Part shown: piece by piece, positions 4,579 to 31,680 of the stretch | How positions within the stretch are numbered: position 1 is the first letter of the stretch | Layout of the letters: each line of letters starts with the position of its first letter | NCBI GenBank assembly: GCA_018818265.1 | Contig: JAHISN010000057.1 | Location: 1-36,835, forward strand | Length of the DNA: 36,835 nucleotides | From: Patescibacteria group bacterium | GTDB taxonomy: Bacteria > Patescibacteriota > 4484-211 | Direction of reading: 5' to 3' | The notes under the pieces: generated by a model | Databases searched by the model: none | Told to the model about the DNA's origin: nothing | Seen by the model: the letters and a program-made list of their open reading frames with translations, nothing else | Translations under genes and position numbers: made by a program

Positions 4579-4643
4579 CGTGGAAAAAGCCCCGCGCTCT
4601 CCACGCGATGCCGCATGGCTGTCTCAGCACGGGGTTCTTCACA
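4579..4643. repeat. Family A element, inverted copy
   Basis: Reverse complement matches 5-64 with about 3 mismatches. Confidence 0.85.
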
Positions 4644-9679: not shown

Positions 9680-10219
9680 TCATCTCGGTCTAAGAACAAC
9701 AATCAATCGTTTCCCCTCAAACCACGGCGCTTTTTCCGGCTCAGCGACACCCTCTAAGGCTTTTAGCACGCCGGCAAGCTTTTCCTGCCCCAGAGACTTA
9801 TGAACAATTTCTCTCCCAATATAATGCACCACAAATTTAACACTGTTCCCTTCTTCAAGAAAGGCTTGCGCCTGATCAATTCTCATTTTTAGATCATGCT
9901 CAGCAATATTCGGCTTGAGTCTTAATTGCTTTAGCCCACCCTTCTTACTTTGGCGACCTCCGCGTTCCTTTTTTGTTTCTTCGTATAAAAACTTTTTAAA
10001 ATCCAAAACCTTTGCTATCGGCGGATCATTTTTTTGGTTAACCACCACCAAATCTAAGCCTTGGCCTTGTGCAATTTTAATAGCCTCATCCCGCGTCATT
10101 TTACCTAATCCCTTCCCCTCATCAGAAACAACAAACACCTCAGCCGCCTCTATATTAAAATTCGCGGGAAAAAACAATTTCTTCTTTCTTTTCGGTTTCT
10201 GTTTTCTTCTTCTTCCGAT
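9680..10219 (-). CDS. infC: Translation initiation factor IF-3 (probable non-canonical ATC start)
   Basis: NFNIEAAEVFVV; GLDLVVVN....PPIAKVLDFKKFLYE; PNIAEHDL; FLEEGNSVK; start inferred from promoter position. Confidence 0.93.
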   Translation of the reverse strand: MGRRRKQKPKRKKKLFFPANFNIEAAEVFVVSDEGKGLGKMTRDEAIKIAQGQGLDLVVVNQKNDPPIAKVLDFKKFLYEETKKERGGRQSKKGGLKQLRLKPNIAEHDLKMRIDQAQAFLEEGNSVKFVVHYIGREIVHKSLGQEKLAGVLKALEGVAEPEKAPWFEGKRLIVVLRPR

Positions 10220-10225
10220 TAGTGG

Positions 10226-10254
10226 ATTGTAACAGATGTTCGGCGGAGAGGCAA
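10226..10254 (-). promoter_or_regulatory. Sigma70 promoter for infC-rpmI-rplT
   Basis: TTGCCT-17 bp-TACAAT with an extended TG. Confidence 0.65.
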
Positions 10255-10325
10255 GGGTAGACACCAAACAGCCTCATTTGGGCCTCGACAGCAATCGCAA
10301 GGGTGGTGCGCTAGCAGACTAGTAC

Positions 10326-10401: not shown

Positions 10402-12369
10402 CTACAAATCAAGGCTTTTGGCTTCAATTGTAGATTTTATTCTTTCCAGAAATTTATTCACGGTGATTTCACCAACCTTTTTCTCAGTTCTCAGACGGAC
10501 ATTAACTGTTCCACTTTCCTGCTCCTTCTTACCAACCACCAGCATATATGGGACCTTTTGGTTTTGTGCGTCGCGGATTTTGGCCTGCATCGTTTCGTTG
10601 CGACTATTAATTTCTACGCGAATATCCTCATCTTGAAGTTTATTCTTAATCTCTCGAGCATAATCATTTTGTTCTTCTGAAATAGGAATTATTTTAACCT
10701 GAAGAGGCGACAGCCAGACGGGAAAATTGCCTGCGTAAAACTCAATAAGGAAAGCAAAAAACCGTTCAAAAGAACCAATCAGGGCGCGATGAATAACAAA
10801 AGGTTGCTGCTTTTCTCCGTGGTCATCAATATAGGTCATACCAAACTTTCCCGGAAGATTAAAATCAATTTGAATTGTAGAGACACTTTCCTCTCGACCT
10901 AGGGGGTCAAGAGCTTGAACGTCCAGTTTTGGCCCATAAAAGGCAGCCTCCCCCATTTCTTCGTAATACTCAACTCCCGCCTGATCTAAAGCTTTCTTTA
11001 TAGTACTCTCGGCATGCTGCCAGTCTTTACTGGTACCGCAGAATTTGAATTTTTCCTTTTTCGGATCCCCTAGACCTAGCCGATATGTATAATTAGCAAA
11101 CCCAAGATCTTGGTAGAATTTTTGTAACATCTCAAAAACTTCTAAGAACTGGTCCATAAGCTGATCCGGTGTGCAAATAATATGGGCATCATTCTGAGTA
11201 AAGCCTCTTACACGAGCCAGGCCGCTCAGTACACCCGATTTTTCATATCGATAGACAGTGCCAAACTCTCCCAGTTTAAGTGGTAACTCACGGTAACTGT
11301 GCGGCTGGCTGTTATAGACGATTATACCCATGGGACAGTTCATTGGTTTTAAGTAATAAACTTCATCATCTATTTCCACTGGCGCGTACATCGAGTCTTT
11401 ATAAAAATCCAGGTGCCCGGAAGTGGCAAACAGAGTATCTTTTCCAATATGTGGGGTTAGTATATGCTCGTATCCATAGCTTCGCTCCAGCTTGAGCATA
11501 TAGTCTTCCAGCGTGCGGCGGATACGGTAACCATTGGGCAACCATACGGGCAAACCCGCTCCAATCTCAGGGTAAATACCATACAGACCTAACTGCTTAC
11601 CCAGAACACGGTGGTCACGCTTTTTGGCCTCCTCCTGCAACTTGAGATATTCAGCCAATTCTTTTTGAGAGGGAAAAGCGGTACCGTAGATGCGGGTGAG
11701 CATTTTGTTCTTTTCATCGCCCCGCCAGTAGGCGCCAGCTACGGAAAGTAGTTTGAAGGCTTTTATTTCACCAGTAGAGTTAACATGCGGGCCAGTACAG
11801 AGGTCTACAAATGGTTCGACGGGTTCACCACAAATGCCTTCAACAGGCTCAGGACAGGTCCCTTCGACCCCTTCGGCAAGCTCAGGGCAGGCGGGTTCGA
11901 TGGGTTGGACAGGCTCACCACGGGCAGGCTCACCGCAGGCAGGCTCGGGCCGGGCCGGGCAAGAAAAGGGACAGGTAGAACAGGTTTGGGTTTGAGAAAT
12001 TTTGCCCGCTTGCGGTGAGCTTGCCGAACCCGTCCAGTATACTGTTGGCTCGTCTCCCTTTTGGCGTATTTCATCTAACCATTCCTGCTTGTAGGGGTTA
12101 TTTTCGAAAAGTTCGCGGGCTTTGTCGAACGAGATTTCTTCGCGGGTAAAAGACAGATCAGCATCAATAATTTTTTGCATCTCCGCTTCTATTTTAGGAA
12201 AGTCCTCCTCGGAGACCTTATGGCTACCGGGGTCAAAATCAAAATAGAATCCATTTTCAATCGCCGGCCCCATAGCCATTTTAATCCCGGGAAAAAGCCT
12301 TAGCATAGCTTGAGTGAGGATATGTTCTGCTGAGTGACGGAGACTTTGGAGCTTATCTTCTTTCGGCAT
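10402..12369 (-). CDS. thrS: Threonine--tRNA ligase (no TGS domain; 72-aa insert)
   Basis: RHSAEH; FVDLCTGPHV; AYWRGD; KRDHR; LKPMNCP; RVRGFTQNDAH; AAFYGPKLD; IHRALIGSFERF. Confidence 0.97.
   Translation of the reverse strand: MPKEDKLQSLRHSAEHILTQAMLRLFPGIKMAMGPAIENGFYFDFDPGSHKVSEEDFPKIEAEMQKIIDADLSFTREEISFDKARELFENNPYKQEWLDEIRQKGDEPTVYWTGSASSPQAGKISQTQTCSTCPFSCPARPEPACGEPARGEPVQPIEPACPELAEGVEGTCPEPVEGICGEPVEPFVDLCTGPHVNSTGEIKAFKLLSVAGAYWRGDEKNKMLTRIYGTAFPSQKELAEYLKLQEEAKKRDHRVLGKQLGLYGIYPEIGAGLPVWLPNGYRIRRTLEDYMLKLERSYGYEHILTPHIGKDTLFATSGHLDFYKDSMYAPVEIDDEVYYLKPMNCPMGIIVYNSQPHSYRELPLKLGEFGTVYRYEKSGVLSGLARVRGFTQNDAHIICTPDQLMDQFLEVFEMLQKFYQDLGFANYTYRLGLGDPKKEKFKFCGTSKDWQHAESTIKKALDQAGVEYYEEMGEAAFYGPKLDVQALDPLGREESVSTIQIDFNLPGKFGMTYIDDHGEKQQPFVIHRALIGSFERFFAFLIEFYAGNFPVWLSPLQVKIIPISEEQNDYAREIKNKLQDEDIRVEINSRNETMQAKIRDAQNQKVPYMLVVGKKEQESGTVNVRLRTEKKVGEITVNKFLERIKSTIEAKSLDL
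11812..12027. repeat. Nested palindromic repeat cluster (TTCGrCArGCTCA family) in frame within thrS
   Basis: GGTTCGACGGGTTCACCAC, CCTTCAACAGGCTCAGG, CCCTTCGGCAAGCTCAGGG, CAGGCTCACC x2, and inverted GGTGAGCTTGCCGAACC. Confidence 0.85.
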
Positions 12370-12458: not shown

Positions 12459-13217
12459 TCACCCTTTTATGCGCGTAGTGATTTGCGGCTCACGGCGGCC
12501 AACAATAACGGTCTCCTCAAACATAGCGGAAAGACTGCCATCAGTTGTTATTGCAGTCCAACCATCTTCAAGAATTTTAACATCCGAACTCCCCTTGGTA
12601 TACATTACTTCTACAGCCAAACCCATACCTTCTTTTAGTTCGGGACCGGTATGCGGCGGACCCCAGCATGGAATCTCCGGAGGCTGGTGTAAATTGCGGC
12701 CCACTCCGTGACCAGTAAACATCCGCACAACACTGTAGCCGGCATCTTCCACCGTTGTTTGGATAACATGAGAAATATCACCAACATATTTGCCTTCAAT
12801 GCATTGACTAATGGCTTTGTTAAGCGCCATTTGGCCCGCCTCTAAAAATCTCTTTTCTTTTTGAGGTTCGTTGATAACAAAAGTGAGAGCAGTATCCGAA
12901 TAGAATCCCTCCGCAATACCCCCTAAATCAATAGTCAACAAGTCACCGGTTTTAAGACTCCGCGATCCGGGCATGGCATGAACTACTTCTTCATTAACAC
13001 AGGTTACCAATGTAAACGGATATCCTTGAAACCCCTTAAAAGCCGGCTTAGCACCATTTTCCAAAATAAAATTTTCTGCAAATTGATCCAATTCCCGAGT
13101 AGTTATTCCCAGCTGAGATTTTTGCGTAAGCAAAGTTTTTAACTCCGCAGCAATAGCCCCCGCGCGCATCATTTTAATTATTTCTTCTTGATTTAAGATA
13201 GGAATTTCTTCTTTCAT
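12459..13217 (-). CDS. map: Type I methionine aminopeptidase
   Basis: VNEEVVH, IDLG, SDTA, GHGVG..LHQ, AVEVM, FEET metal ligands; start at ATG 13217, 9 nt after TATAAT. Confidence 0.95.
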   Translation of the reverse strand: MKEEIPILNQEEIIKMMRAGAIAAELKTLLTQKSQLGITTRELDQFAENFILENGAKPAFKGFQGYPFTLVTCVNEEVVHAMPGSRSLKTGDLLTIDLGGIAEGFYSDTALTFVINEPQKEKRFLEAGQMALNKAISQCIEGKYVGDISHVIQTTVEDAGYSVVRMFTGHGVGRNLHQPPEIPCWGPPHTGPELKEGMGLAVEVMYTKGSSDVKILEDGWTAITTDGSLSAMFEETVIVGRREPQITTRIKG

Positions 13218-13334
13218 CGCAGAAACATTATACATCCCCTCAAAGACTACAGATGTTCACTTTAAAAAATGACGACCGCACTGACCCTGTCAGACGGAGT
13301 TACACTCACTGTACTGACAACATTTATGTTGTTA

Positions 13335-14552
13335 CTATCTTGATAACGCGCTGAAGCCCTGCCCGTCCGGCAGGCGGGGCGTCACTTCAGGACGTAGATA
13401 TTTATAGTCCGTGCGTGACCATCTCACCACATATTTCTTCAGCATCCCGCATGGTTGAAGATGATTTTTGAACCGGCGCAAACCGGGAAAACCAAGATCC
13501 TGTTCAAAGTTAATAAATTTGACTTTACCCTCCTTCGCAGAAAGCCCCGTCCGTAAGGGCGGGGATGAATGCGATGAGGGTAACCCTTCGTAGCTCGAAG
13601 AGCGTAGTAGGGTACGCTTCGGAGGGTTCCGCCCGACGAAGCATGTGGAGGAGCCACGGCTGTAAGGCCGTGGGGCTCCACTTGTAAACGAATCCGCGAG
13701 ACACCAAAACAAATATTCGGAAATCCCAGCAAACTTGGTATCCGTAGTAAAGTGATGAATCAAAAGAGTTTGTTGAGGAATTAATTCGACTACGGCAAAT
13801 GCTCGAATCTGTCCCTCCATTTCTACAGTACATAAAATCAATTCTAACTTATCCCAAAACAGAAAGAGTTTCTCCAGACCGGCATTATCCCTCTGCCAAC
13901 TTAGCACCATTTCATTTGAATCGAAGATCTTTTCGGCAGTAATTTGTTGCTGCAAATCCCAGCATTTTTCTATTAACGATTTTTCCTGGGGCGGCCTGCG
14001 GCCGCCCCCATAATTCCTATGAGGGCGACCCCCTTCGGGGGTCGCCCCCAAAAAGCACGTAATACCAGGTTTATACTTTCTACGACACAAATTAACTTTT
14101 CGCCGCACCGCGGCATACTTCCGACCCTTCAAATCAATAATCTCAGCCGCATCATAAAGATAATCGCTATTTGCTTCATCAGTGCTAATCTCGAATTGAC
14201 CTCTGTCTGCCAGCCGTTTCACCGTGATTCTGGGCAGAAACGATAGACAGTCCGTGCTCAGTTCCTCCTTAACATAAAGGAGCAGTTCTCTTGTTGATTT
14301 GTCAACCTGATTGACTCCTAGAAAACTAGCCAAATTCACCCCACTCACCGAATCTTGCATAACAACTACCATATTGCCATTGAGATTTGATACTTTAATC
14401 GTGTTGTTATCGTCCAGCCCAAATAAGCTGCTAAATTGAAAATCCGAATAGCTACTATTTAGCTGCGAATTAAATTCGTTGATAATTGCTCGGTGTTTTA
14501 GACCAAGCGGTTCAAAATTGGGAAATGGGGAAAGGAGTAGAGTAGAGGACAT
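13335..14552 (-). CDS. DUF2156 (LPG synthase C-terminal/GNAT-like) protein with repeat inserts
   Basis: YSDFQFSSLF; DYLYDAAEIIDLKGRKYAAVRRKVN; FINFEQDLGFPGLRRFK..LQP..MLKKY. Confidence 0.78.
   Translation of the reverse strand: MSSTLLLSPFPNFEPLGLKHRAIINEFNSQLNSSYSDFQFSSLFGLDDNNTIKVSNLNGNMVVVMQDSVSGVNLASFLGVNQVDKSTRELLLYVKEELSTDCLSFLPRITVKRLADRGQFEISTDEANSDYLYDAAEIIDLKGRKYAAVRRKVNLCRRKYKPGITCFLGATPEGGRPHRNYGGGRRPPQEKSLIEKCWDLQQQITAEKIFDSNEMVLSWQRDNAGLEKLFLFWDKLELILCTVEMEGQIRAFAVVELIPQQTLLIHHFTTDTKFAGISEYLFWCLADSFTSGAPRPYSRGSSTCFVGRNPPKRTLLRSSSYEGLPSSHSSPPLRTGLSAKEGKVKFINFEQDLGFPGLRRFKNHLQPCGMLKKYVVRWSRTDYKYLRPEVTPRLPDGQGFSALSR
13347..13378. repeat. Palindromic element CGCGCTGwAGCCCTGCC...CCGGCAGGCGGG, copy 2
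   Basis: Matches 2112-2143. Confidence 0.75.
13529..13680. mobile_element. ~150-bp non-autonomous double-hairpin element (IS200/IS605-end-like), inserted in frame
   Basis: Subterminal hairpins GCCCCGTCC-GTAA-GGGCGGGG and CCACGGC-TGTAAG-GCCGTGG; interrupts the DUF2156 domain just before the INxEQDLG motif. Confidence 0.55.
13988..14047. repeat. Two GC-rich palindromes in frame in the DUF2156 gene
   Basis: GGGGCGGCCTGCGGCCGCCCC and GGGCGACCCCC-TTC-GGGGGTCGCCC. Confidence 0.8.
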
Positions 14553-23809: not shown

Positions 23810-23866
23810 TTATACTTTTGATAGTACAATATGCCCAACAGTACTGTCAACAGCCTGAACTGATAG

Positions 23867-23920
23867 AGGGTTTAACCCTGTCACTATAATAAAATAAAAA
23901 AGTTGACAGGGTTAAACCCT
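23867..23920. repeat. REP-doublet-like inverted repeat
   Basis: Perfect 17-bp inverted repeat AGGGTTTAACCCTGTCA / TGACAGGGTTAAACCCT; each arm is itself near-palindromic. Confidence 0.85.
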
Positions 23921-23980
23921 ATTTCAAGCACAAGAAACTCCCTCTTGTTTAGACTCGTCTCAATATGTTAGCATTTTTCC

Positions 23981-27423: not shown

Positions 27424-29328
27424 GTGTCCGATGCAATTCTTTCTTCTCTTAATTCCCAGCAGCAGGCGGCAGTAAAACATATGGATGGACCGAGCTTGGT
27501 TCTGGCCGGGGCCGGAAGCGGTAAGACCCGCGTATTAACCCACCGCACCGCCTATCTTATTGATCAAGGTATAGACCCACAAAATATTCTGCTAGTAACT
27601 TTTACTAATAAAGCCGCCGGGGAAATGAAGGAGCGAGTCCATAAACTTCTGGGCGCCTTTCCCGCTACTCCTGCGACCTATCCGGCTACTCACCCTCACA
27701 TCGGCACTTTTCATGCTACTTGCGCCCAAATTCTACGTCTTAACGGCGAACACATCGGCTTGTCATCACGCTATCTTATTTACGACACTGCAGACCAACT
27801 TTCACTCATCAGACAGGTTATTGAAAAACTAAAGCTGTCTAAAAGTCTCAAGCCTGCTGCCATTAAGAGCTTTATCTCTTCAGCCAAATGCGAACTCATC
27901 GGCCCTAAGAAATACGCTCAATACGCACGCGGCTATTATCAGGAGCTAGCAGCTGAAATCTATCCTGTTTACCAGAAAATGCTTAGGGAAAATGAGGCTC
28001 TGGATTTTGGCGATTTAATTATGGAAACTGTAAAGTTATTTAGAGAATTTCCCGAGGTTTTGAGCCAGCACCAAAACAAATTCCGCTACTTGATGGTGGA
28101 TGAATATCAGGACACTAACTTAGCCCAGTACACTTTGACTAAACTATTGACCGGAATAGGGGACACCCAAAATCTCTGCGTCGTTGGCGACTGTAGTCAA
28201 AGCATTTATGCCTTCCGTGGCGCCAACTTAGGCAATGTCCTTAAATTCAAGGGCGATTTTCCTCAAACCAAAATCTTTCATCTGGAAAGGAATTATCGTT
28301 CTACCAAGACGATATTGTCTGCGGCCACGCAAGTTATCAAAACTAACCGTCACGCCCATCCTGTCCTGGATCTTTGGACAGATAATGAACAAGGCCAGCC
28401 TATCGTAATTTATTATGCAATTGACCATGTAGATGAAGCCCAATTCGTAATCCATCAAATCCAGAAACTGCGCAACTATGATTTGAACGACTTTGCCGTT
28501 TTATACCGCACCAACGCTCAGTCACGGGCGCTGGAAGAAGTTTTTCTGCACTCACACCTGCCCTATCGTTTAGTCGGCGGCGTTCACTTCTACGAGCGCA
28601 AGGAAATTAAAGACATTCTGGCTTATCTCAGACTAATTGCTAACCCTAAAGATGGTGTTAGTTTTAAGCGGGCCGTTAACACCCCTCCGCGAGGTATAGG
28701 CCCAGTTACTCTAAAGCAAGGCGGCCCTAAACTGGAACATTTTCAAGCGCTCATTGAATCCTATCGGCATAAAAGCAAGCGTGTAAACATTGTAGATTTG
28801 ATTGATAACTTGCTAGAACGTATTAATTTTAAAGAGTATCTTGATGACGGTACTGAGAGCGGGATAACACGATGGGAAAATGTGTTGGAGCTTAAGTCTG
28901 TAGCTCAATCTTTTGCAAAACTTTCACCGGAAGAATCCATATTCGCCTTTTTAGAAAATGTCTCATTAATGGAAAGAACGGAAATATCAACCCGAAAGAA
29001 TGAGTCCCTGTTGACCAATCGTGAAGAAAGCGCGGTTAACTTAATGACCCTGCACGCAGTTAAAGGACTGGAATTCCCAGTAATTTTTATTATTGGTATG
29101 GAAGAAGGTCTCTTGCCGCACTCCCGCTCCTTAATGGAACGCACGGCGCTAGAAGAGGAAAGAAGACTCGCCTATGTAGGTATCACCCGTGCACGCGAAA
29201 GACTATTTTTAACCCACACCCAAAGTAGATTATATTTCGGCCAACAGAGAATATTCCCACCCTCAAGATTCTTGAAAGATCTTCCGGAAGAATTAGTGGT
29301 CCGCAAGAGGGGATTGTTAATGAGTTAA
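27424..29328 (+). CDS. pcrA: UvrD/PcrA family ATP-dependent DNA helicase
   Basis: AGAGSGKT; TFTNKAA; VDEYQDTN; NYRST; LYRTNAQSR; MTLHAVKGLEF; EEERRLAYVGITRA. Confidence 0.95.
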   Translation: MSDAILSSLNSQQQAAVKHMDGPSLVLAGAGSGKTRVLTHRTAYLIDQGIDPQNILLVTFTNKAAGEMKERVHKLLGAFPATPATYPATHPHIGTFHATCAQILRLNGEHIGLSSRYLIYDTADQLSLIRQVIEKLKLSKSLKPAAIKSFISSAKCELIGPKKYAQYARGYYQELAAEIYPVYQKMLRENEALDFGDLIMETVKLFREFPEVLSQHQNKFRYLMVDEYQDTNLAQYTLTKLLTGIGDTQNLCVVGDCSQSIYAFRGANLGNVLKFKGDFPQTKIFHLERNYRSTKTILSAATQVIKTNRHAHPVLDLWTDNEQGQPIVIYYAIDHVDEAQFVIHQIQKLRNYDLNDFAVLYRTNAQSRALEEVFLHSHLPYRLVGGVHFYERKEIKDILAYLRLIANPKDGVSFKRAVNTPPRGIGPVTLKQGGPKLEHFQALIESYRHKSKRVNIVDLIDNLLERINFKEYLDDGTESGITRWENVLELKSVAQSFAKLSPEESIFAFLENVSLMERTEISTRKNESLLTNREESAVNLMTLHAVKGLEFPVIFIIGMEEGLLPHSRSLMERTALEEERRLAYVGITRARERLFLTHTQSRLYFGQQRIFPPSRFLKDLPEELVVRKRGLLMS

Positions 29329-29505
29329 TGGGTTAATGGGTTAATGGGTTAATGGGTTAATGATGTTAATGATGGCCATTTGACGATTAGTCAACAACTC
29401 ATTAACTACTTCATTAACTACTTCATTAACTATTCATTAACTGACCACTAACAACTAGAAACTGAAACCTAAAAAGCTAGTGAAGCTAAAAAGCTAACCA
29501 CCTGA
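29317..29505. repeat. Inverted octamer/12-mer arrays between convergent pcrA and pnp
   Basis: (TTAATGGG)x4 facing CATTAACTACTT repeats; also AAGCTAGTG-AAGCTAAA-AAGCTAAC. Confidence 0.85.
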
Positions 29506-31627: not shown

Positions 31628-31680
31628 AGTTAATTGGTTAATTGGTTAATTAACCAGTTAACTAGTTAACAAATTAACTT
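31628..31680. repeat. Self-complementary octamer array
   Basis: GTTAATTG GTTAATTG GTTAATTAAC CAGTTAAC TAGTTAAC AAATTAAC. Confidence 0.75.

Follow-up and report, generated by a model that had tools for sequence, protein, structure and literature searches.

A probable cluster of hairpin-repeat units turned coding sequence in the threonyl-tRNA synthetase gene of a Patescibacteria group bacterium

Contig JAHISN010000057.1 of the Patescibacteria group bacterium assembly GCA_018818265.1 carries, at positions 10402..12369 of its minus strand, an open reading frame for a 655-amino-acid threonyl-tRNA synthetase (ThrRS, gene thrS), and between the VYWTG and FVDLCTGPH motifs of this protein lies a 216-nucleotide (nt) insert of 72 in-frame codons (11812..12027, minus strand; residues 115-186). 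Positions given without a contig name are those of the window, by which we mean the whole 36,835-nt stretch that was analysed. The insert is probably a cluster of short hairpin-repeat units that has become coding sequence and is translated as a tolerated loop of an essential enzyme. The family of units is low in copy number and mostly intergenic in this genome (G000; 1.19 Mb in 89 contigs, 97.75% complete, 43.4% guanine plus cytosine (GC)), widespread in the Patescibacteria and known from many further phyla. A preliminary description, made from the letters of the window, had read the insert as nested palindromes inserted repeatedly into one loop; parts of that description stand and parts do not, as set out with the results below.

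Pfam finds the class II catalytic core (tRNA-synt_2b, residues 334-543, E = 8e-41), the HGTP anticodon-binding domain (HGTP_anticodon, 557-646, 4e-25) and tRNA_SAD (187-228, 2e-15) in the 655-residue protein, which make it a bacterial ThrRS of the N2 editing-domain type, and phmmer matches it to the solved ThrRS of S. aureus (1nyq, E = 1e-173) and E. coli (1qf6, 5e-138). An N-terminal TGS (N1) domain gave no Pfam match, and the alignment begins at residues 65-67 of 1nyq and 1qf6; Patescibacteria ThrRS homologues are similar in length and likewise have no TGS domain. This is the single ThrRS match in the whole genome.

The coordinates and content of the insert had been described correctly, as judged from the open reading frame and a count of its composition, and so had the usual state of this place, where other ThrRS were said to have a residue or two: the insert maps between residues 174 and 176 of 1qf6 and between residues 173 and 176 of 1nyq, leaving one unaligned residue in E. 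coli and two in S. aureus. Its peptide contains 14 Pro, 11 Glu, 7 Ala, 7 Gly, 7 Cys and 6 Ser, the seven Cys being most of the 11 in the entire ThrRS, and its DNA is 61.6% GC, compared with 43.8% for the remainder of thrS and 43.4% for the genome. It ends four residues ahead of the residue that aligns with E. coli C182, and the tRNA_SAD match begins immediately after it, at profile position 10.

An assembly artefact had been named as one way in which the insert could prove spurious. A 419-nt contig from run X2, a groundwater metagenome of a different study, aligns to 11738-12156 free of differences and gaps, and an 18.5-kb contig from run X1, the possible source sample, is identical over the insert; this support is at contig level, all four runs that were compared being assembled contigs. 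The insert is not an assembly artefact, as two assemblies from two studies agree over both junctions. Parts of the unit array within 11834-11946 are also matched by low-depth contigs (runs X3 and X4) that belong to other organisms of the same groundwater study; one of them covers 11892-11946 with 5 differences, and in another 11834 and 11928 are linked through 28 different letters, so similar arrays exist elsewhere in that groundwater community.

These agreements also bear on whether the segment could be missing from the mature protein, as an intron, an intein-like intervening sequence or an assembly chimera. In favour of this, the insert stands out from its gene in composition and has strong hairpin potential. 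The frame, however, is continuous and the two assemblies agree base for base, Pfam matches no domain, intein or other, within residues 115-186, and a search of Rfam gave nothing in the window at gathering thresholds and nothing in 11600-12250 at E-values up to 10. A length of 216 nt is also very short for a self-splicing intron. We regard an intervening sequence or a chimera as highly improbable.

The internal structure of the insert is that of an array. Read in the direction of the gene, it opens with a forward unit (F, 12011..12030, minus strand, peptide GSASSPQ) that starts on the codon of the conserved Gly114, has the exact core TTCGGCAAGCTC on the minus strand, and is the inverted partner of the units that follow. 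After it comes a spacer (11938..12010, minus strand) with an AT-richer part containing two partial unit heads (ACCTGTYC, which supply Cys130 and Cys133) and then a GC-rich CCCGGCCCGGCCCGAGCC run; the direct-repeat family D3, at 11851-11859, 11968-11976 and 11977-11985, takes in parts of this spacer. Five reverse units complete the array, all on the minus strand: R1 (11920..11937, CGEPAR), which is truncated; R2 (11893..11919, GEPVQPIEP), of the GGT..ACC clamp type; R3 (11860..11889, CPELAEGVEG), of the CCC..GGG clamp type; R4 (11836..11856, CPEPVEG); and R5 (11812..11832, CGEPVEP), which is flush with the Phe187 codon. R2 and R3 each have an internal 9-nt tail duplication, and R4 and R5 are both shared with a second ThrRS (below). 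The spacing of the five reverse units is 33, 33, 15 and 15 nt, and R5 forms an inverted-repeat-like pair with F, the two ends of the insert (11813-11833 and 12010-12030) being complementary at 16 of 21 positions.

Each unit is about 20 nt long and consists of the core TTCGRCARGCTC flanked by short complementary clamps, so that it can be drawn as a hairpin with a conserved 11-nt loop (TCGRCARGCTC) and a 4-bp stem of three variable complementary bases plus a T-A pair. In this respect the preliminary description needs correction: its motif TTCGRCARGCTCA is not itself a palindrome but a conserved core lying between clamps, and the units are not nested but form an array of five reverse units and one inverted copy. 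Its observation that the motif occurs in both orientations is sound. When one mismatch is allowed, TTCGRCARGCTCA has four matches in the window, three on the plus and one on the minus strand, and all four are within the insert (shuffled controls gave a mean of 0.16, and 0 of 100 shuffles reached 4). The best 24-nt inverted repeat in the insert pairs F with 11872-11895 in R3 and is complementary at 21 of 24 positions, a value reached by 0 of 200 mononucleotide shuffles (maximum 17) and 0 of 200 Markov-1 simulations (maximum 18). Folded as single-stranded DNA, the insert has a z-score of -3.1 and none of 200 shuffles folds as well.

The unusual peptide can be read from the same DNA features. All seven Cys codons are TGY triplets placed just ahead of either a unit or a partial head, and the ends of the unit peptides covary, in that units starting CysProGlu end in GluGly and those starting (Cys)GlyGlu end in GluPro or GlnPro. 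This exchange of Pro and Gly (CPExxEG versus CGExxEP) arises because the clamps are complementary, CCT pairing with AGG and GGT with ACC.

The same family recurs elsewhere in the genome, including between genes, as a genome-wide search confirmed. The 12-mer TTCGRCARGCTC occurs 10 times in G000, twice in the insert, and 0 times in each of 5 Markov simulations; with up to one mismatch there are 42 occurrences compared with 10-18 simulated. The 18-mer of R3 is found exactly at C29:396 and with one mismatch at C70:7394. Seven of the eight exact core copies outside thrS fall outside open frames of at least 150 amino acids, in line with the repeats of all families checked, which are rare within long open frames (6-35% of sites, compared with 78% of the genome). 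Among the copies in G000 the clamp pairs are CCC/GGG, GGC/GCC, GAC/GTC, TCC/GGA and GGT/ACC; that is, their bases vary yet stay complementary. Degenerate units lie in frame in three further genes of G000, namely miaA (L247, G000:C22:6400-7800), whose IPPT domain of 243 profile positions is spread over residues 39-335 and is about 54 residues longer, a 962-amino-acid histidine kinase (L248, G000:C34:6700-9900) and a 631-amino-acid PMT_2-like membrane protein (L249, G000:C65:7700-9900). Other GC-rich repeat words are also abundant in this genome.

A purely local origin, in which replication slippage expanded a short native loop into a tandem peptide repeat with no dispersed family involved, would account for the regular unit spacing and for the 9-nt tail duplication common to R2 and R3, and tandem arrays are typical slippage products. 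The dispersed copies tell against it: an exact 18-mer elsewhere in a 1.19-Mb genome has by our estimate a chance probability of about 3.5e-5, there are seven further exact core copies, and the core with covarying clamps recurs in 139 of the 301 Patescibacteria genomes sampled as well as in other phyla. The inverted copy at the 5' end, moreover, is not a slippage product. As the sole cause of the array a local origin is therefore disfavoured, and we think it unlikely; as a step within the origin from dispersed units, slippage probably did enlarge the array.

The distribution of the unit beyond this genome was measured in three ways. Among 301 sampled Patescibacteria genomes the 13-mer core is present in 139, at 0 to 53 matches per genome and about 592 matches in all, compared with 33 for a reversed-pattern control (counts taken from the table for the 301 genomes, which includes one match from the unpublished genome G159, on which the result does not depend). 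For the clamps, 20 sites in five other genomes were picked solely by the 13-mer core and the 3 nt on each side were compared: 13 of the 20 are fully complementary, with six complementary types, and the other 7 are complementary at two of three positions, whereas about 0.3 of 20 would be expected by chance. In a species-level genome collection of 596 Gb, the 18-mer with CCC/GGG clamps lies in at least 126 stretches from many phyla (Bacteroidota, Cyanobacteria, Actinomycetota, Chloroflexota, Acidobacteriota, Proteobacteria and several Patescibacteria groups), set beside a chance expectation of about 35 by our estimate from uniform composition. The case for a wide distribution of the 18-mer comes from its clustering and inverted partners and not from the count; many of its matches have an inverted GGT..ACC or GGC..GCC partner or stand in tandem arrays. 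A near-identical core in many phyla combined with covarying clamps points to a conserved recognition or copying mechanism.

Rfam searches of 20 loci from other phyla gave sub-threshold matches only, of at most 31 bits for RF02901 (cut-off 97) and at most 33 bits for RF03468 (cut-off 70), and we do not take them to place the units in either family. These matches, to RF02901 (Aggregatibacter sRNA 41) and RF03468 (mir-2830), are found on both strands of elements, from proteobacterial as well as other genomes, in which two units stand inverted (L043, L044, L060, L085 and L131), and the two Rfam families may themselves include a copy of this repeat. On a Staskawiczbacteria contig (L048) a unit at 151-168 stands one base after a tRNA gene at 75-149. 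A literature search by nucleotide word, peptide word and topic found no description of the unit.

Among ThrRS proteins the insert is exceptional. In a search of 5.8 billion proteins the nearest homologues are 69-73% identical and 571-603 amino acids long and have two to eight residues at the place of the insert, so that alignment with the closest relatives, which the preliminary description had called for, shows the insert to be absent from them. Residues 108-192 used as query against the same proteins returned only the protein itself among 54 candidates scored. The loop is, as had been suggested, a tolerant one, and 78 Patescibacteria ThrRS differ widely in its length: Y111 and D189 are 6-8 residues apart in 38 homologues, 11-12 in 27, 17-49 in 12, and 77 in G000. 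The longer loops are rich in Lys and Glu and unrelated to the insert. No other ThrRS has a Cys-rich loop at this place among the 78 homologues, 40 relatives and 80 metagenome loci. A metagenome scan with the junction peptide (residues 160-230) likewise gave 0 unit-type inserts in the best 80 of 249 relatives, most of which matched only from FVDLC on, and records of G000 itself were perhaps left out of it.

One other genome does have part of the array in its ThrRS. An order-level search of 13 genomes with the insert peptide gave matches in G000 and in G001 only, the latter a genome of the same family but another genus. Its ThrRS (617 amino acids) reads IYWTG-SIPSDKS-CPEPVEEASGKPVEP-FVDLC, and in four clade-mates of G001 (G005, G007, G009 and G012) the loop is seven residues long and aligns with SIPSDKS. 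The insert in G001 therefore amounts to 15 residues, corresponding to units R4 and R5. This module is in frame, conserves PEPVE and KPVEP, and abuts the Phe codon at which the G000 insert also ends, so that the right-hand boundary is the same; it has one Cys, the second shared Cys position being Ser. Two further members of the family, G002 and G003, read WTGDQF and WTGEEF and have no module. The two genomes that have the module in ThrRS also have core copies (10 in G000, 4 in G001), and there are 0 copies in G002, G003 and G007, which are without it.

In a ThrRS tree built with the inserts removed, G000 groups with P0003, P0002, P0009, P0005, P0008 and P0004 (support 98/97) and G001 with G007, G012, G005 and G009 (100/99), so G000 and G001 are not sisters. 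The module of G001 may be an independent insertion at a preferred or selected site, a short-patch transfer (45 nt), or old ancestry with losses, and the identity and synonymous-site counts given below are too small to separate these. A local recombination tract around the shared module is unsupported, the downstream flank of G001 agreeing with that of G000 at 127 of 180 positions compared with 125-137 for five other relatives. The tree (thrS plus loci L009-L038) is at odds with taxonomy in other ways, in that G000 groups with proteins including one named Nealsonbacteria, G001 with order-mates of another family, and G003 with a genome of the same phylum only; this conflict may be due to thrS having moved between Patescibacteria, or to the limited resolution of the tree.

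The rest of the enzyme, including its editing and catalytic residues, looks intact in alignment and in a structure prediction. K94, D189, C191, H195, C345, H396 and H527 are invariant in the 78 homologues, H12 and H16 are nearly so, and all align to 1qf6. The DLCTGPH motif (11785..11805, minus strand) provides D189, C191 and H195, which correspond in that alignment to E. coli D180, C182 and H186, residues that we take to belong to the editing site. HSAEH (12322..12336, minus strand), with H12 and H16, is the HxxxH motif of the editing domain, lies in nearly invariant columns and aligns to the solved ThrRS. We assume that HxxxH, the Lys and DxCxxxH together make up the editing site and that C345, H396 and H527 are the ligands of the catalytic zinc. 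An AlphaFold model built with the 78 homologues has a mean predicted local distance difference test score (pLDDT) of 88.2 and a predicted template modelling score of 0.81; only residues 118-180 fall below a pLDDT of 50, and they are predicted to have no secondary structure and to link the strands 109-113 and 187-190.

This prediction bears on the suggestion of the preliminary description that the insert is a new metal-binding loop or affects the editing of Ser-tRNA(Thr). As an exapted functional loop, its seven Cys, including a CxxCxxxC motif, would bind metal or form disulfides beside the editing cysteine and tune or protect editing. The location of 7 of the 11 Cys of ThrRS in an insert that ends four residues before the C182-aligned residue fits this, as does a second lineage with the R4 and R5 module in frame and PEPVE and KPVEP conserved. 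On the other side, all the Cys codons follow from the repeat DNA as TGY before a unit or partial head, G001 retains one Cys and has Ser at the second shared position, no Cys-rich counterpart is present in the proteins and loci surveyed above, and AlphaFold predicts no structure for the segment, although metal sites are beyond its modelling. We find neither a metal-binding loop nor an effect on editing supported, and judge a functional loop of this kind to be doubtful.

The explanation that we favour is that the insert is a cluster of hairpin-repeat units turned coding sequence, and the steps that we infer for it are arrival of the unit, local amplification, translation and tolerance. The turn of the beta-hairpin that leads into the DxCxGPH editing motif would first have received one or two units. 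Growth of the array to its present content of five reverse units, a single forward one and the spacer with its partial heads would have followed, for which slippage or template switching at the hairpins is the simplest route. Repeated insertion, as first proposed, and one or two insertions followed by local amplification may both have produced what is seen and are indistinguishable here. The length has remained a multiple of three, and the frame that is read (PExxEG / GExxEP) is free of stops. The segment is most likely translated, judging from the single copy of the gene, the continuation of the frame into the catalytic core and the intact motifs, and it would form a 72-residue disordered surface loop rich in Pro, Glu, Gly and Cys that ThrRS tolerates. 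The features of the peptide would be by-products of the unit DNA, Cys from TGY and the Pro/Gly exchange from the clamps.

Several observations weigh against this explanation. Two of the three sense frames are stop-free over the insert, so an open frame is weak evidence. Folded as RNA, the insert shows only a marginal excess of structure (z = -1.9; 10 of 200 shuffles did equally well). No target-site duplication is visible by eye at the junctions, and "insertion" is itself our interpretation. The genome has three matches to the Y1-transposase family PF01797 (C21:2667-2873, C10:25323-25550 and C32:20-160), and no exact unit copy adjoins any of the three, the nearest on C32 being about 21 kb away, so that the unit has no linked mobilising enzyme. 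The chance expectation for the 18-mer given above must also be counted here. Finally, the module of G001 is identical to R4 and R5 at 35 of 45 nt, compared with 127 of 180 in the conserved downstream flank, and synonymous sites of G000 and G001 agree at 8 of 13 positions in the insert and 109 of 282 in the remaining gene, although the numbers are small; if the module is old and under selection at the level of the protein, "merely tolerated" is too weak a description.

A bolder version of events would have the unit as a still-active, site-selective element or a template-switch product of some unrecognised but widely distributed copying machinery, which hit the same ThrRS codon boundary independently in two non-sister lineages, and would have the Cys-rich loop now modulating the adjacent editing site. 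The editing cysteine of E. coli ThrRS is sensitive to oxidation. We hold this version to be a long shot, and prefer the tolerated cluster described above. The pair of G000 and G001 is nevertheless a concrete system in which to ask whether insertions are targeted.

The neighbourhood of thrS is as follows. The gene for translation initiation factor 3 (infC; 9680..10267, minus strand; Pfam IF3_N and IF3_C) is directly downstream, and a methionine aminopeptidase gene (12459..13235, minus strand; Pfam Peptidase_M24) is upstream. Two genes upstream of thrS, a 405-amino-acid open reading frame (13335-14552, minus strand) matches LPG_synthase_C only over residues 30-160 (profile positions 3-131 of 298), contains GC-rich islands at 13596-13690 and 13974-14061, and has a 32-nt repeat at 13347-13378 in common with 2112-2143; it looks like another gene with repeat-derived segments. 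Elsewhere in the window, the longest repeat pair is a 61-nt inverted repeat (4-64 and 4582-4642) whose arms are 95% complementary and 4.5 kb apart. There are also tandem 8-nt GTTAATGG repeats at 29316-29362, an AT-rich palindrome of GTTAAT words at 31629-31677, and a pair of AGGGTTWAACCCT-type palindromes at 23861-23926, of a family with 26 sites in G000.

If the favoured explanation is right, this ThrRS is a clear case of repeat DNA becoming protein in an essential translation enzyme of an ultra-small groundwater bacterium, near its proofreading site. For genomes of this kind, protein alignments, domain calls and trees are inflated and distorted by such inserts, as in the tRNA_SAD match that is cut at the insert.

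Three kinds of known element invite comparison. The insert may or may not be of the kind of miniature inverted-repeat transposable elements: its ends are complementary at 16 of 21 positions as noted above, and no junction duplication is visible by eye. Repetitive extragenic palindromic (REP) sequences of the GTAG/CGTC-tagged super-families, as characterised by Di Nocera et al. 2013 (PMC3733652), are mostly extragenic stem-loops of which a minority lie inside known genes. The present unit is likewise a short hairpin-forming repeat that is mostly extragenic (13 of 20 clamps complementary; 7 of 8 copies outside long frames). Unlike REPs it has a stem of only 4 bp, a conserved 11-nt loop, no copy beside the Y1-transposase matches and no tag, GTAG or CGTC being absent from the flanks of 26 core-like matches in G000 and 20 sites in other genomes. 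Membership of the tagged REPs is ruled out by the missing tag and by the lack of a unit adjoining the three Y1-transposase matches. In the same account, 20-30 residues are contributed by intragenic REP dimers or groups, and 43 to 82 by the clusters described for Thauera and R. conorii, a range into which the 72 residues found here fit.

The Rickettsia palindromic elements RPE-1 to RPE-10 (Ogata et al. 2000, as summarised in PMC10969869) form in-frame peptide segments that leave the fold unbroken, and the preliminary description was apt in citing them, as an analogy (PMC10969869, PMC3733652). Going by that summary, they differ from the present case in several ways: the host phylum is unrelated, the element is about 150 bp long with its own conserved peptide whereas the present unit measures about 20 nt and has 4-bp clamps around a conserved loop, and the unit is found in many phyla instead of being specific to a genus and makes up a six-unit array. 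What the two have in common, within the scope of the same summary, is that dispersed palindromic repeats of a reduced genome stand in frame within genes whose proteins are functional and often essential, and the insert in ThrRS would extend this phenomenon of RPEs and intragenic REPs to a different type of unit and to the Patescibacteria.

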